Below are positions 42,037 through 60,819 of a stretch of DNA of 64,000 nt, one piece after another. Source of the DNA: Escherichia coli (GTDB lineage Bacteria > Pseudomonadota > Gammaproteobacteria > Enterobacterales > Enterobacteriaceae); the NCBI RefSeq assembly GCF_024298765.1, contig NZ_CP101210.1; one strand, written 5' to 3'. The position numbers and the translations under genes were made by a program. Each line of letters starts with the position of its first letter. Within the stretch, counting starts at the first letter, position 1. The notes beneath the pieces were generated by a model. It saw only the letters and a program-made list of their open reading frames with translations, did no database searches and had not been told where the DNA came from.

Positions 42037-42465
42037 TTACGCTTTGGTGGCAATCAGGATGGCTGATGCTTTGATCAATGCAATAACGCGCGAGCCAGTG
42101 GTGAGTTTCATTTCATCCTGACTTTCATTTGTTACCACTGCCACAATTTCAAAACCCGCATCCGTTTTGATATGGACAGTGGCGTTCACTGCGCCTTCGG
42201 TGATTGTCGACACGCTGCCAGCAAACTGGTTGCGAGCAGAGAATTTCAGTCCACAGTCTTCCGTTGCCAGCGTGACCCACGGGGCTTTAATCAGGGCAAT
42301 CGCTTCTTTCCCTTTCGCCAGACCCAGCGCTTGCTGGCTGCTGTGAGTCACAATTGCCACCAGCTTTGCACCACCTGCCAGCGTCAGTTCTACTTCGTCA
42401 TTCACCGCGCCCATTGCTACTGCGCTAACTGTTCCGGTTAATTGATTTCTTGCTGAAACTGCCAT
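42037..42465 (-). CDS. tandem TOBE-domain molybdate/molybdenum-pterin-binding (Mop-like) protein
   Basis: Track ORF 42037..42504; likely start at 42465 (MAVSARNQLTG) after AAAGGAGG. Two repeats of the SARNQ...G.V...ALIKA TOBE/Mop pattern. Confidence 0.65.
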   Translation of the reverse strand: MAVSARNQLTGTVSAVAMGAVNDEVELTLAGGAKLVAIVTHSSQQALGLAKGKEAIALIKAPWVTLATEDCGLKFSARNQFAGSVSTITEGAVNATVHIKTDAGFEIVAVVTNESQDEMKLTTGSRVIALIKASAILIATKA

Positions 42466-42509
42466 ACTGCCTCCTTTCATTGAATGTTGATCGAGTATAA
42501 CCACATCTG

Positions 42510-44588
42510 TTAAATCAATGCCGATTTATCAATTCCCAGTCGCTTCATTCGTGACAGCAGAGTCGTGCGTTTCAGCCCCAGACGTTGCGCAGCGCCTTTA
42601 GGCCCGGCAACCACGCCGTTTGTTTCTTTCAGCACGCGAACAATCAACTGATATTCATCTTCGCCCTCCTGGGCGACAACCGTTGCGGCAGGCGGCGTTT
42701 CAGGTTCTGGTAAAGCAATATCTGGCAATGACAGCTGCAGCACGTTGCCGCGTGTTAGCAATACCGCGCGCTCAATGACGTTTTCCAGCTCACGCACGTT
42801 GCCCGGCCATTCCATGTTGCTCAGGATGCGCAGCGTCTCGGCAGGAATGCTGTCGATATTGCGCCCCAGACGACGGGCAATTTTGAAGGTAAAGGCTTTC
42901 GCCAGCAGCGGAATATCTTCCGGACGCTCGCGTAGTGGCGGCAGGTGGATCGGGAATACGTTCAGACGGTAATAGAGATCGCTACGGAACTCTCGGTCGG
43001 CGACCATTTTTTTCAGATCGCGGTTAGTCGCGGCAATTAAACGTACGTCCGTCTGAATGATTTTGTTGCTGCCGAGACGTTCAAACTCCTGTTCCTGTAA
43101 TACACGCAGCAACTTCGGCTGTAACTCCAGCGGCATATCGCCCACTTCATCGAGGAATAGTGAGCTTTTATCCGCCAGTTCAAAACGACCAATGCGCTGA
43201 GCGCTGGCACCGGTAAAAGCCCCACGCTCATGACCAAATAGATCGCTTTCCAGCAATCCGGCAGGCATCGCCGCGCAGTTCATTTTGACCATGCGGCGAT
43301 TATTACGCCCACTGAGATTATGGATCGCGCGGGCAATCAGCTCTTTACCTGTACCAGTTTCACCGAGGATCAGAACGGTACTGTCACTTTGCGCCACCAT
43401 TTCAACTTGTTTAAGTACGCTGTACATGGCTTCGCTGCGGCCAATAATCTCGCCAAATTCACTATCAACATTGTTGAGCTGCTCGGTCAGGGCGAGGTTT
43501 TCATCAACCAGCCGTTCTTTCAGACGATGAATTTCCTGATAGGCGAGGGCGTTATCGACAGCGATTGCCACACGTTCGGCAATCTGGCGCAGTAAATTCA
43601 GATTGGTAGTGGTAAAGACTTTCTCTTCGCATTGCGCCAGTTTTAGCACGCCCAGCATAGTGTCGCCAGACATCAGCGGTAACAGGCACAAGGTTTGAAT
43701 CTGGTTGCCCCAGGTGTTGAACAACATGCGTTCATAGGGGGCTAAATCGTCCCGCTCGTGGAGATTAATCAACAGCATCTCTTTACTTTTGAAGACGCGT
43801 TCGGTGAGGGTTCCGGCTTCATCGACTTCGCTCTGTTCGTGGGCGGGATGCTGTTTATCAAGATAGTGAGTGGAGTAGATGTTGAGTTTGTTTTTACGGT
43901 GGCTGCGTAAGACGATGCTGATATCGTCAATGTCGAAATAGTAATGGATTTCTTTGGCGACTTCGCTGACCAGTTCGTCCATATCCAGGCGGGAAAGCAC
44001 CGCGTTAGTGATGGCGACCAGGATGCGGAAGTTATCGCGTTCCCGGCATAACAACTCATAGTCGACATTGTTAACGACGCGGCTCTGGATTTGTTCGGTG
44101 ACGACAGAAACGATCTGCGTAAATGTTTGCAGACGATTGAACTCTTTTTCGCTCCAGGGGCGATCGTCATGACGAATAAATTCACAGCCACCAAAAATAT
44201 GCCCTTCCGCCGCCAGTGGCATCAGGCAATAGTGACCAAATTTGGGGTATAGCCCACCTGTGGCCAGCTGCGGCCAGGTTTCACAAAATTCTTCGTAACT
44301 GCAATGCAGCGTATCAGGGCGCGACAAAATGCTGCGTACCGGACCGTGTGCCAGAACAGTTTCGTCTTCATATTTAATGGGGGTGTCTTTTTCACGCGAT
44401 GCGTAATAAGACGCACGTTGAGTCTGCGCTTGCCACAACACAATAGCCGCGTTGTCGGCGAGCGCAGAACGCTTTACCAGTTGCGAAAGAGCCTCACACA
44501 GCGAGGCCAGATCGGGCTGCTGCAATAGTGTCCGAGTGATGTCGAACAACCCTTGCTGTCCGAGATCACTCATCGGTGTATATGACAT
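42510..44588 (-). CDS. fhlA: formate hydrogenlyase transcriptional activator FhlA (sigma-54 dependent)
   Basis: Track ORF 42510..44624; likely 692-aa protein from MSYTPMSDLGQQGLF; AAA+ sigma-54 activator motifs (GETGTGKE, GAFTGA) and C-terminal HTH. Confidence 0.9.
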   Translation of the reverse strand: MSYTPMSDLGQQGLFDITRTLLQQPDLASLCEALSQLVKRSALADNAAIVLWQAQTQRASYYASREKDTPIKYEDETVLAHGPVRSILSRPDTLHCSYEEFCETWPQLATGGLYPKFGHYCLMPLAAEGHIFGGCEFIRHDDRPWSEKEFNRLQTFTQIVSVVTEQIQSRVVNNVDYELLCRERDNFRILVAITNAVLSRLDMDELVSEVAKEIHYYFDIDDISIVLRSHRKNKLNIYSTHYLDKQHPAHEQSEVDEAGTLTERVFKSKEMLLINLHERDDLAPYERMLFNTWGNQIQTLCLLPLMSGDTMLGVLKLAQCEEKVFTTTNLNLLRQIAERVAIAVDNALAYQEIHRLKERLVDENLALTEQLNNVDSEFGEIIGRSEAMYSVLKQVEMVAQSDSTVLILGETGTGKELIARAIHNLSGRNNRRMVKMNCAAMPAGLLESDLFGHERGAFTGASAQRIGRFELADKSSLFLDEVGDMPLELQPKLLRVLQEQEFERLGSNKIIQTDVRLIAATNRDLKKMVADREFRSDLYYRLNVFPIHLPPLRERPEDIPLLAKAFTFKIARRLGRNIDSIPAETLRILSNMEWPGNVRELENVIERAVLLTRGNVLQLSLPDIALPEPETPPAATVVAQEGEDEYQLIVRVLKETNGVVAGPKGAAQRLGLKRTTLLSRMKRLGIDKSALI

Positions 44589-47062: not shown

Positions 47063-47925
47063 CGCTGTGTCTCCAGCCAGTTCAGCCACTGGTCCATCCC
47101 TTCGCCGCTGGTGGCGGAAATAAGGATGATTTCAATTTCTGGATTGACTTCACGGGCGCAGGCGATGCACTTCTCAACGTCGAAATTGAGATACGGCAGC
47201 AAGTCAACTTTGTTGAGCAGCATCAGCGAGGCGGCGGCAAACATGTGCGGATATTTCAGCGGTTTGTCTTCACCTTCGGTAACGGAAAGCACCGCCACTT
47301 TGTGTTTTTCACCGAGATCGAAGCTGGCCGGGCAAACGAGGTTACCGACGTTTTCGATAAACAGAATACCGTTATCGTCCAGTGGCAGGCGCGGCGCGGC
47401 GTCGGCAATCATCTGTGCGTCAAGATGGCAGCCTTTACCGGTGTTCACCTGAATCGCTGGGGTGCCGGTAGCGCGAATGCGTGCGGCATCGTTCACGGTT
47501 TGCTGGTCACCTTCAATAACCGCGCACGGAACGCTGTCTTTCAGGCGCATTAAAGTTTCCGTCAGCAGGGTGGTTTTACCGGAACCAGGGCTGGAAACCA
47601 GGTTGAGCACCAGTTGCTTGCGGGCAGCAAAGCGCGCGCGGTTGCGTTCAGCCAGACGGTTATTTTTGTCCAGCACGTCAATTTCGACTTCCAGCATCCG
47701 ACGCTGGCTCATGCCCGGCGCGTGAGTGCCCGCTTCGCCATGACCGTAATGCAGGTCGCCTTCTTCAGTCTGGCTGGGGGTAAATTCAGGCGCTTTAATG
47801 CCGGTGATTTTCATCTTCGGGCGTGCCGCCGGGGCAAATGGCGCGCTACGAAACGCGGAATGAGGGTTATGTTCATCACCCTCAATATAGAGGTTGCCTT
47901 CACCGCAACCGCATGTTGTACACAT
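47053..47925 (-). CDS. hypB: hydrogenase nickel incorporation GTPase HypB
   Basis: 290-aa ORF with N-terminal MCTTCGC metal-binding motif and His-rich stretch; GTPase P-loop GSGKTT. Confidence 0.9.
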
Positions 47926-47928
47926 CGC

Positions 47929-48279
47929 TCACTCCTGGTCTATTTCTATCCGCCGAATCTGTAAACCGTCGTCTGCCACAATCTGTAGCATGTCACCATG
48001 ACACTGTGGACAGCGGCGGACGCGCTGGGTCAGTAGCGTCACATACTGTTGGCATGTTTCACACCAGCATTCGGCCTCTTGTTCTTCGAGGTGCAGTTTA
48101 CAACCTTCCGCCACGCTGCCGCGGCAAACCAGATCAAAACAAAAGGCAAGAGAGCTGGTTTCGACACAAGAAAATGCGCCAATTTTGAGCCAGACCCCAG
48201 TTACGCGTTTTGCGCCGTGTTTTGCGGCCTGCTGTTCGATCAATTCCAGTGCCCGTTGGCAGAGGGTTATTTCGTGCAT
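47929..48279 (-). CDS. hypA: hydrogenase nickel insertion protein HypA
   Basis: Track ORF 47929..48291; likely 116-aa protein from MHEITLCQ with CxxC...CxxC zinc site. Confidence 0.9.
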   Translation of the reverse strand: MHEITLCQRALELIEQQAAKHGAKRVTGVWLKIGAFSCVETSSLAFCFDLVCRGSVAEGCKLHLEEQEAECWCETCQQYVTLLTQRVRRCPQCHGDMLQIVADDGLQIRRIEIDQE

Positions 48280-48308
48280 ATCGCCTCCCATTAACTATTG
48301 CCAGCTAC

Positions 48309-48326
48309 AAGCAATAATTGTGCCAG
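48309..48326 (-). promoter_or_regulatory. sigma-54 promoter (-24/-12) of the hyp operon
   Basis: Minus-strand TGGCACAATTATTGCT matches the TGGCAC-N5-TTGC consensus. Confidence 0.6.
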
Positions 48327-48438
48327 TGTTGATTATCCCTGCGGTGAATAATGTCGATGATGTCGAAATGACACGTCGACACGGCGACGAAATTCATCTT
48401 TAGCTTAAAAATCGCTTTAATAACAATAAATTAAAAGT

Positions 48439-48454
48439 TGGCACAAAAAATGCT
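48439..48454 (+). promoter_or_regulatory. sigma-54 promoter (-24/-12) of the hyc operon
   Basis: TGGCACAAAAAATGCT, GG and GC elements 12 bp apart; about 37 bp upstream of the hycA ATG. Confidence 0.6.
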
Positions 48455-48490
48455 TAAAGCTGGCATCTCTGTTAAACGGGTAACCTGACA

Positions 48491-48952
48491 ATGACTATTT
48501 GGGAAATAAGCGAGAAAGCCGATTACATCGCACAGCGGCATCGTCGCCTACAGGACCAGTGGCACATCTACTGCAATTCGCTGGTTCAGGGAATCACGTT
48601 ATCGAAAGCGCGCCTGCATCACGCCATGAGCTGCGCGCCGGACAAAGAACTCTGTTTCGTCCTTTTTGAACATTTTCGTATTTACGTCACCCTGGCGGAT
48701 GGCTTTAACAGCCACACCATCGAGTATTACGTCGAAACAAAAGATGGTGAAGACAAACAGCGGATTGCGCAGGCGCAACTGAGCATTGACGGCATGATTG
48801 ATGGCAAGGTCAACATCCGCGATCGCGAACAGGTTCTGGAACACTATCTCGAAAAAATCGCTGGCGTTTACGACAGCTTATACACCGCCATTGAAAACAA
48901 TGTGCCGGTGAATTTAAGCCAACTGGTAAAGGGACAAAGCCCGGCAGCATGA
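48491..48952 (+). CDS. hycA: formate hydrogenlyase regulatory protein HycA
   Basis: 153-aa ORF recognised as HycA. Confidence 0.9.
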   Translation: MTIWEISEKADYIAQRHRRLQDQWHIYCNSLVQGITLSKARLHHAMSCAPDKELCFVLFEHFRIYVTLADGFNSHTIEYYVETKDGEDKQRIAQAQLSIDGMIDGKVNIRDREQVLEHYLEKIAGVYDSLYTAIENNVPVNLSQLVKGQSPAA

Positions 48953-49076
48953 GCTGAGGCTTTGCCCGTTTTGCAGGCGTTACGCCTGTTTGGGGATGGG
49001 CGTGTCGATGAGTGTCGAAAATGACATTTCATCGGCATGTTTTCGTCAAAAATGACAATCACCTGAGGAATGCCTG

Positions 49077-49688
49077 GTGAATCGTTTTGTAATTGCTGAC
49101 TCCACGCTCTGTATCGGCTGCCACACCTGTGAGGCCGCCTGTTCAGAGACGCATCGCCAGCACGGCCTGCAATCAATGCCGCGCCTGCGAGTGATGCTCA
49201 ATGAAAAAGAATCTGCGCCGCAGCTCTGTCACCACTGTGAAGATGCGCCCTGTGCGGTGGTTTGCCCGGTTAACGCCATCACCCGCGTTGATGGGGCCGT
49301 GCAGTTGAATGAAAGTCTGTGCGTAAGCTGCAAACTGTGCGGCATCGCCTGCCCGTTTGGCGCAATTGAATTTTCCGGCAGCCGTCCGCTGGATATTCCG
49401 GCAAACGCCAATACCCCGAAAGCGCCACCGGCACCGCCTGCTCCGGCGCGTGTCAGCACATTGCTTGACTGGGTGCCAGGTATTCGCGCGATCGCCGTCA
49501 AATGTGACCTTTGTAGCTTTGATGAACAAGGTCCGGCCTGCGTGCGGATGTGCCCGACTAAAGCCCTGCATCTGGTGGATAACACCGATATCGCCCGCGT
49601 CAGCAAACGTAAGCGTGAGCTGACTTTTAACACGGATTTTGGCGATCTCACCTTGTTTCAGCAGGCTCAAAGTGGAGAGGCTAAATGA
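49077..49688 (+). CDS. hycB: formate hydrogenlyase iron-sulfur subunit HycB
   Basis: 203-aa ORF with four CxxCxxCxxxCP ferredoxin motifs. Confidence 0.9.
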   Translation: MNRFVIADSTLCIGCHTCEAACSETHRQHGLQSMPRLRVMLNEKESAPQLCHHCEDAPCAVVCPVNAITRVDGAVQLNESLCVSCKLCGIACPFGAIEFSGSRPLDIPANANTPKAPPAPPAPARVSTLLDWVPGIRAIAVKCDLCSFDEQGPACVRMCPTKALHLVDNTDIARVSKRKRELTFNTDFGDLTLFQQAQSGEAK

Positions 49689-60671: not shown

Positions 60672-60684
60672 ACATTGTCATCAC

Positions 60685-60719
60685 ATGTCATCGTCACTAG
60701 TGTCGATGACATCGTTTTT
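60685..60719 (+). other. 9-bp perfect inverted repeat ATGTCATCG...CGATGACAT followed by T-run (putative ascG terminator and/or regulatory site for hydN)
   Basis: Inverted repeat with 10-nt spacer and downstream TTTTT read from the sequence; function inferred. Confidence 0.35.
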
Positions 60720-60819
60720 CCTGCATTACAGAATTTAATTTCTTTAAATAACAGTAAATTAAAAACTGGCATGATTTGTGAATGTATCGGCGCATTAACT
60801 GTCATTGCTGGAGAATTTG

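Follow-up and report, generated by a model that had tools for sequence, protein, structure and literature searches.

Divergent sigma-54 promoters and a conserved FhlA-type enhancer block in the hypA-hycA control region of Escherichia coli

Genomic context

The control region described here lies in a 64,000-nucleotide stretch of Escherichia coli DNA (the window, always taken at its full length), in which the annotated gene order runs mutS, ygbA, fhlA, hypEDCBA, hycABCDEFGHI, ascBFG, hydN and hypF, in the orientation opposite to that of K-12 MG1655. The divergent genes hypA and hycA are separated by a gap of 211 bp, inside which the segment 48292-48490 falls, and the identity of both genes, as named in the original prediction made from the sequence, is borne out by RefSeq annotation and Pfam (Table 1). 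The open reading frame of fhlA carries the Pfam domains GAF, Sigma54_activat (E=1.1e-72) and AAA lid, together with an HTH_8 match of 21.0 bits, just under the Pfam cut-off of 22; FhlA, with its GAF, AAA+ and HTH parts, is the cognate sigma-54 enhancer-binding protein of the locus.

A query of 1,061 bp spanning the gap had a match in 5,425 of the 5,426 complete genomes of E. coli, often at 100% identity, and the matched genomes carry the hypB, hypA and hycA annotation at that place. The hycA-hypA region of K-12 is the same locus, with a 211-bp gap in which both promoter 17-mers and all the other elements are identical to those of the window. The gap holds a single substitution relative to K-12 (48414, G here and T in K-12), located in non-conserved AT-rich spacer and outside all of the regulatory elements, and the hycA genes of the two strains show a few differences of synonymous type, none of them in a regulatory element. 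The formate hydrogenlyase locus in the window is thus a normal one for E. coli, its classical control region being intact, and the annotation is supported. Three features collected in Table 1, namely UAS2, the IHF-like site and a third sigma-54-like match within hycA, lie outside the account given in the original prediction.

Table 1. Genes and regulatory features, observed or predicted, of the hyc-hyp control region (positions in the window).
Feature	Position	Strand	Remarks
fhlA	42510-44588	-	last gene of hyp transcription unit; annotated formate hydrogenlyase transcriptional activator
hypA	47929-48279	-	first gene of hypABCDE-fhlA; Pfam HypA E=7.6e-31; RefSeq annotation
Predicted hyp transcription start	48299	-	20-nt leader to hypA ATG at 48279
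hyp operon sigma-54 promoter TGGCACAATTATTGCT	48310-48325	-	-24 TGGCAC / -12 TTGCT
UAS1, TGTCG/TGACA-type FhlA half-site cluster	48343-48398		predicted enhancer; conservation and FhlA matrix
UAS1 element TGTCGATGATGTCG	48352-48365		
UAS1 element TGTCGAAATGACA	48361-48373		
UAS1 dyad CGTCG...CGACG	48374-48389		CGTCG at 48374 pairs with CGACG at 48385
UAS1 element GTCGAC	48375-48380		read directly in sequence
UAS1 element CGACGAAATTC	48386-48396		
IHF-like site TAACAATAAATTA	48421-48433	+	WATCAANNNNTTR with 1 mismatch; directly upstream of hyc -24
hyc operon sigma-54 promoter TGGCACAAAAAATGCT	48439-48454	+	1 mismatch to TGGCAC-N5-TTGCW
Predicted hyc transcription start (48465) and hycA leader	48465-48490	+	26-nt leader
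hycA	48491-48952	+	first gene of hyc operon; Pfam HycA_repressor E=1.3e-90; RefSeq annotation
Sigma-54-like match TGGCACATCTACTGCA	48560-48575	+	inside hycA
UAS2, predicted FhlA-type enhancer	49003-49057		in 124-bp hycA-hycB gap
UAS2 element TGTCGATGAGTGTCGAAAATGACA	49003-49026		
UAS2 element CGTCAAAAATGACA	49044-49057		

Divergent sigma-54 promoters

Two sigma-54 motifs stand back to back in the gap, one on each strand and with 114 bp between their -24 elements, in agreement with the claim of the original prediction that -24/-12 elements occur here in both orientations. The hyp promoter is an exact match to TGGCAC-N5-TTGCW, and the hyc promoter has one mismatch, in which an A replaces the T ahead of GC; in both, the GG and GC dinucleotides are exactly 10 bp apart. 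The pattern TGGCAC-N5-WTGCT occurs only twice in the 64 kb, at hyp and at hyc, against 0.12 occurrences expected, and a count of two was attained in 1 of 100 shuffles.

The whole 64-kb window was scored with an RpoN matrix built from 186 promoters (Table 2 of PMC7658346). This was one of the checks proposed along with the prediction, and it placed the hyp promoter first (19.09 of a possible 21.0) and the hyc promoter second (15.35). Taken by itself the hyc score lies within the range of chance, as the best match in simulated 64-kb sequences averages 15.8, and the support for this promoter accordingly comes from its position, its conservation and published ChIP data.

For this locus of K-12, Bonocora et al. 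2015 tabulate two sigma-54 ChIP-seq sites (their Table 1), OS28 CTGGCACAATTATTGCT for hypA, with a fold-above-threshold of 201 that is jointly the strongest among the rows of that table considered here, and OS27 TTGGCACAAAAAATGCT for hycA, with a fold of 91. Both are flagged in that publication as experimentally confirmed in EcoCyc, and the hyp and hyc motifs of the window are letter-for-letter identical to OS28 and OS27, respectively. The rule of the same authors that transcription begins 19 bp downstream from the centre of the motif predicts the two starts of Table 1 of the present text, and since the leaders derived by it for hypA and hycA equal the distances in the published table, the mapping of coordinates is secure. 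In the other check proposed, comparison with published promoter maps, motifs and predicted leader lengths were in accord with this table. The hypA leader contains a Shine-Dalgarno sequence, GGAGG, at 48284-48288 on the minus strand.

Genomic SELEX with the sigma-54 holoenzyme likewise gave a peak in the hypA-hycA gap, and divergent sigma-54 (NtrA) promoters at hyc/hyp were already described in 1990 (Lutz et al., as represented in the citing paper PMC3844500). Judged by their identity to the K-12 sites, both motifs can be taken as sites that sigma-54 binds in vivo in K-12, and the earlier assessment that the arrangement matches known FhlA/sigma-54 control and is not novel was correct on both the ChIP-seq and the historical side.

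The third-best RpoN matrix match in the window, TGGCACATCTACTGCA, scores 15.13, little below the hyc promoter, and has the orientation of the hyc operon. It might be a functional internal promoter for transcription of the remainder of hycA and of hycB, and intragenic sigma-54 sites are described as common in E. coli by Bonocora et al. 2015; this is nevertheless quite improbable, given that the match is absent from the ChIP-seq sites in the main-text tables of that paper and that only about half of the orthologous loci retain a sigma-54-like pattern. The match coincides with the hycA codons Trp-His-Ile-Tyr-Cys, and in other genera CGT or CAG takes the place of the His codon and Cys is encoded by either TGC or TGT. 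In view of this codon variation, conservation at the site follows the protein and not a promoter, and TGGCACATCTACTGCA was rejected as a conserved promoter and appears to be a coding coincidence.

The predicted enhancer block between the promoters

The original prediction had noted inverted repeats of the TGTCG...CGACA type between the promoters and had taken them as plausible upstream activating sites for FhlA. Such repeats do exist. TGTCG at 48352 and at 48361 has an inverted partner in CGACA at 48377, and the segment 48345-48400 holds five inverted pairs with 5-nt arms where 0.95 are expected (p about 0.013). Arms of 5 nt are weak evidence taken alone, and stronger evidence is provided by conservation and by the match to an FhlA matrix. 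That matrix has 14 positions, was derived from 13 characterised sites (Schlensog 1994, Leonhartsberger 2000) and reads TGWC-RAWRAT-GWCA; it gives 16.04 at 48352-48365, the second-best score in the window, relative to a simulated chance level at which the best match averages 13.8 and reaches 16.25 at most. These scores are partly circular, as the UAS1 and UAS2 sites probably contributed to the matrix. On conservation and matrix together, the placement and the pentamers of the earlier reading stand, and its wording is only an approximation of the published FhlA site, TGWC-N6-GWCA.

Across about 20 genera the UAS1 block is conserved and its flanks are not. The orthologues yield the consensus GTGACGATGTCGACGCTGACGAAATGACATGTCGTCAC, and a profile built from non-Escherichia UAS1 sequences recovers 48351-48382 in the window at E=1.8e-9. 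The same profile finds UAS2 only at E=0.1 and the hydN upstream region only at E=4, and for that reason it is unusable as a regulon-wide model. With respect to the predicted starts, UAS1 extends from -69 to -113 on the hyc side and from -53 to -97 on the hyp side; for enhancers of sigma-54 promoters the typical upstream distance is roughly 70-150 bp (PMC3844500).

The idealised 16-bp FhlA palindrome CATTTCGTACGAAATG (Leonhartsberger 2000, in the form quoted in PMC4987338) found no match at up to 3 mismatches in the whole window, the hydN upstream region included. Half-sites are present in UAS1 as CGAAATG (48364-48370) and CGAAATT (48388-48394), and natural sites are not singled out by the idealised palindrome in this window. 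The density of TGWCR/YGWCA pentamers ranks the three expected regions first, with counts of 4-5 per 60 bp where simulated maxima average 3.9, and is too weak as evidence by itself.

Dyad arms of only 5 nt, a pentamer density barely above simulation, the missing match to the idealised palindrome and a terminator-like hairpin called at 48374-48389 would all be in keeping with dyads that are chance repeats, a hairpin or terminator, or the sites of some regulator other than FhlA. Such an origin is extremely improbable in the face of a block that is preserved across about 20 genera while its flanks vary, and of top FhlA matrix matches that fall precisely in UAS1 and in its near-duplicate UAS2. The dyads moreover lie between divergent promoters, where transcription is not expected, the terminator scan returned a chance count (1 found, 0.9 expected), and a search of 47900-49200 against Rfam gave only a meaningless microRNA match (E=0.95). 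The hairpin called as a terminator is the enhancer dyad itself. The placing of an FhlA enhancer in the dyad region is thus supported; FhlA binding upstream of hyc is stated in secondary literature, and on this literature and the sequence we infer that FhlA may occupy these very bases.

IHF-like site and other signals

Between UAS1 and the hyc promoter lies the IHF-like site, the only match to the IHF consensus in the gap with one mismatch or fewer. Its column consensus across genera, AATCAATAAATTAAAA / AATCAATAAATTA, is the exact IHF consensus and is embedded in poorly conserved AT-rich DNA. PMC2636881, citing Hopper 1994, lists IhfAB among the activators for both hyc and hyp, and occupancy of 48421-48433 by IHF would be in line with this literature.

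A scan for sigma-70 promoters gave counts at the level of chance. Screening of the gap for FNR sites returned nothing convincing, the sole match at up to 2 mismatches being one that overlaps the IHF-like site. A candidate ModE site at ATCGCT (48411-48416) was dropped, as the G at 48414 is the strain difference from K-12, which has T at that position.

A second block in the hycA-hycB gap

UAS2, the predicted second enhancer of FhlA type, contains the best FhlA matrix match in the whole window (17.48 of 17.7, at 49013-49026) and a further match of 12.24 at 49044-49057. A string of 22-24 nt, TGTCGATGA(N)TGTCGAAA(N)TGACA, occurs in near-duplicate at 48352-48373 and 49003-49026, an event of which none are expected by chance. 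The GTGTCGA..GTGTCGA motif of UAS2 and TTTCGTCAAAAATGAC are kept in all 80 of the orthologous loci. No sigma-54 motif was found adjoining UAS2, and the block must therefore act at a distance.

Conservation and spacing across Enterobacteriaceae

The orthologue set comprised one genome per species, giving 80 other Enterobacteriaceae loci from about 20 genera. In every one of them hypA and hycA are divergent, across gaps of 188-223 bp, and exactly one sigma-54 match was found on each strand; the UAS1 core and the IHF-like site are likewise retained across the 80 loci. Column conservation is high at the two -24/-12 elements, the central block, the AT-rich site beside the hyc -24 element, the hycA leader and the hypA ribosome-binding site, and low between these five features. 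The hycA leader measures 24-27 nt in every orthologue and is well conserved in sequence.

The distance between the two -24 elements, counted with the window included, is 114-116 bp in 58 sequences, 102-103 bp in 19, 92 bp in 3 and 112 bp in 1. The UAS1 core motif was found in 72 sequences, where its distance to the hyp -24 element is 36-38 bp in the majority and 48-49 bp in the rest, and its distance to the hyc -24 element is 43, 54-57 or 65-66 bp. Spacing between genera thus changes mostly in steps of about 11 bp, or about one helical turn, and these steps represent few independent insertion or deletion events, in at least four lineages. Such helical-turn spacing is suggestive of, and would fit, stereospecific looping among activator, IHF bend and closed complex.

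Proposed mechanism and significance

Taken together, the region is almost certainly the E. coli hyc-hyp control region, in which divergent sigma-54 promoters flank a conserved FhlA-type enhancer. In the proposed sequence of events, RNA polymerase with sigma-54 would sit at each promoter as a closed complex that is unable to start alone. As formate builds up under fermentation, FhlA in its formate-bound form would bind UAS1 and UAS2; a bend introduced by IHF at its site would bring the FhlA bound at UAS1 onto the hyc promoter by DNA looping, and ATP hydrolysis by FhlA would then open the promoters. HycA is an anti-activator of FhlA. Since hycA starts the hyc operon and fhlA ends the hyp unit, the region would drive both a positive feedback, through fhlA, and a negative feedback, through the antagonism of HycA towards FhlA.

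The assignments of enhancers to promoters considered here are drawn from the arrangement of the elements or from the literature. One refinement of the main explanation, which does not replace it, divides the labour such that UAS1 with IHF activates hyc only and UAS2 activates hyp from a distance of about 700 bp. It is favoured by the rank of UAS2 as the best FhlA matrix match and its likeness to UAS1, by its retention in 80 of 80 loci without a sigma-54 promoter of its own, by the presence of the single IHF-like site only on the hyc side of UAS1, and by the assignment of a site between hycA and hycB to hyp activation, which was reportedly made in earlier work. On the other hand, the fixed distance of the UAS1 core from the hyp -24 element (36-38 bp or one turn more) suggests a constraint relative to hyp, the position of UAS1 at -53 to -97 is within reach of the hyp promoter, and the sequence is compatible with UAS2 acting on hyc from downstream. 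We regard the chances of this division of labour as evenly divided.

A rather unlikely, though more far-reaching, arrangement would have UAS1 as a single bidirectional enhancer for both promoters, with helix face mattering for each of them, as the one-turn steps in the distances of the UAS1 core to both -24 elements might suggest. In that case UAS2 could act as a third, cooperating site, looping in to assist assembly of the FhlA oligomer. If true, a bidirectional UAS1 would revise the textbook picture of one enhancer per promoter at this locus.

The main explanation, that of divergent promoters around an FhlA-type enhancer, concerns a control region that is already known, and the mildly new points of the present work are comparative only, namely the universal conservation of both enhancers and the helical-turn spacing. 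The latter is a small new comparative observation that fits known looping mechanics and leaves the understanding of the system unchanged. Fermentative hydrogen production is governed by this region, which also serves in the bioengineering of hydrogen and formate; for such work it is useful to know that its elements are identical to those of K-12, and constructs that replace hycA could disturb UAS2 inside the operon.

Comparison with known systems

The hycA/hypA region of Salmonella Typhimurium LT2 is likewise a divergent pair bound by the sigma-54 holoenzyme, as seen by ChIP-chip, with the same 114 bp between the 5' ends of the motifs, and its hyc and hyp transcripts are sigma-54-dependent, by 26-fold and 5.6-fold, respectively (Samuels et al. 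2013). Its -24 elements read TGGCAT where those of the window read TGGCAC, and the spacers differ as well (TGGCATGGAAAATGCT and TGGCATAAATATTGCT).

The literature names FhlA as the protein that activates hyc, hyp, hydN and fdhF in response to formate, and clusters of TGTCA/TGTCG/CGTCA occur upstream of both hydN and fdhF, where the FhlA matrix gives modest scores of 6.9 and 8.2. The hydN-hypF promoter lies in the same window (60675-60782) and shows a cluster of TGTCA/TGTCG/TGACA followed by TAACAGTAAATTAAAAACTGGCA, as at hyc. This hydN module differs little from its hyc counterpart TAACAATAAATTAAAAGTTGGCA, and an IHF-like module stands upstream of hydN too. The hydN promoter is the known sigma-54 site OS26, for which the distance of 27 given in the table of Bonocora et al. 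2015 was reproduced. It differs from the hypA-hycA region in being a single promoter and not a divergent pair, with a weak -12 element (TGTGAA).

In K-12, fdhF has a sigma-54 promoter, TGGCATAAAAGATGCA, preceded by TGTCA/CGTCA/TGACG repeats, and shares the same activator according to the literature. Its half-sites are arranged differently, in a large dyad GCTGTC...GACAGC, and there is no obvious IHF-like module beside its -24 element. When hyc, the hycA-hycB gap, hydN and fdhF were aligned four ways, the IHF and -24/-12 modules aligned and the enhancers did not.

ZraR binds between the zraP and zraSR promoters. Although absent from the window, this E. coli locus offers another back-to-back sigma-54 pair, OS38/OS39, with about 154 bp between the motif centres in the tables of Bonocora et al. 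2015. It resembles the hypA-hycA region in that arrangement, and differs in its activator (ZraR), in its zinc signal and in the sequence of its enhancer.

Spacing and leader conservation in the hypA-hycA region

The distance between the -24 elements of the divergent hyp and hyc promoters, compared between the window (48325-48439) and 80 orthologous Enterobacteriaceae loci (L002-L081), was found to fall into discrete classes of 92, 102-103 and 114-116 bp, with 112 bp in one locus, and the distances from enhancer core to promoter likewise shift by steps of about 11 bp between genera. Together, these spacing classes and steps suggest that helical phasing is preserved across the hypA-hycA gaps of different genera. 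The sole difference of this gap from K-12 MG1655 lies at 48414 (G in the window, T in K-12), in a poorly conserved spacer flanked by the enhancer on one side and the IHF-like site on the other.

The hycA leader is unusually conserved, reading ATCTC..TTAA.CGGGTAACCTGAC ahead of the ATG with only a weak Shine-Dalgarno sequence; contacts close to the promoter, or control of translation, could account for this conservation. In the hypA leader, conservation is confined to GGAGG. The segment preceding hycB, near-invariant in 80/80 loci, carries both an FhlA-type site and the ribosome-binding site of hycB, which places enhancer and translation signals in close overlap.

Features in and around the formate hydrogenlyase loci
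Feature	Position	Strand	Remarks
TOBE domain-containing protein gene (annotation)	42037-42504	-	142-155 aa; directly 3' of fhlA
hycA leader	48465-48490	+	short in every genus (24-27 nt)
Third near-consensus sigma-54 motif, TGGCACATCTACTGCA	48560-48575	+	within hycA
TTTCGTCAAAAATGAC(N)ATCACCTGAGGA	49034-49076	+	immediately 5' of hycB
TGTCA/TGTCG/TGACA cluster	60675-60714	+	upstream of hydN
TAACAGTAAATTA	60749-60761	+	after the hydN cluster
CTGGCATGATTTGTGAA	60766-60782	+	hydN promoter, ChIP-seq site OS26

Neighbouring gene and annotation

A TOBE domain is a typical feature of molybdate-binding proteins; such a protein would be of interest beside a molybdenum-dependent regulon. The TOBE-domain gene is accessory; 1,892 out of 5,426 complete E. 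coli genomes carry it. Separately, RefSeq labels the formate hydrogenlyase activator gene of another locus (L083 8611-10689, NZ_CP029164.1) 'flhA', with product 'FlhA'; this looks like fhlA with its letters transposed, giving a name that already belongs to the flagellar export gene.

Further sigma-54 motifs

The motif inside hycA overlaps the codons W-H-I-Y-C and reaches an RpoN matrix score of 15.13, just under that of the hyc promoter. Its sigma-54 pattern is kept in only about half of the 80 orthologues, and the site is not among the ChIP-seq sites in the main-text tables of Bonocora 2015. The hydN-hypF promoter region (60675-60782, plus strand) shows the same arrangement as hyc, and the hydN leader is predicted at 27 nt, which equals the distance published for OS26.
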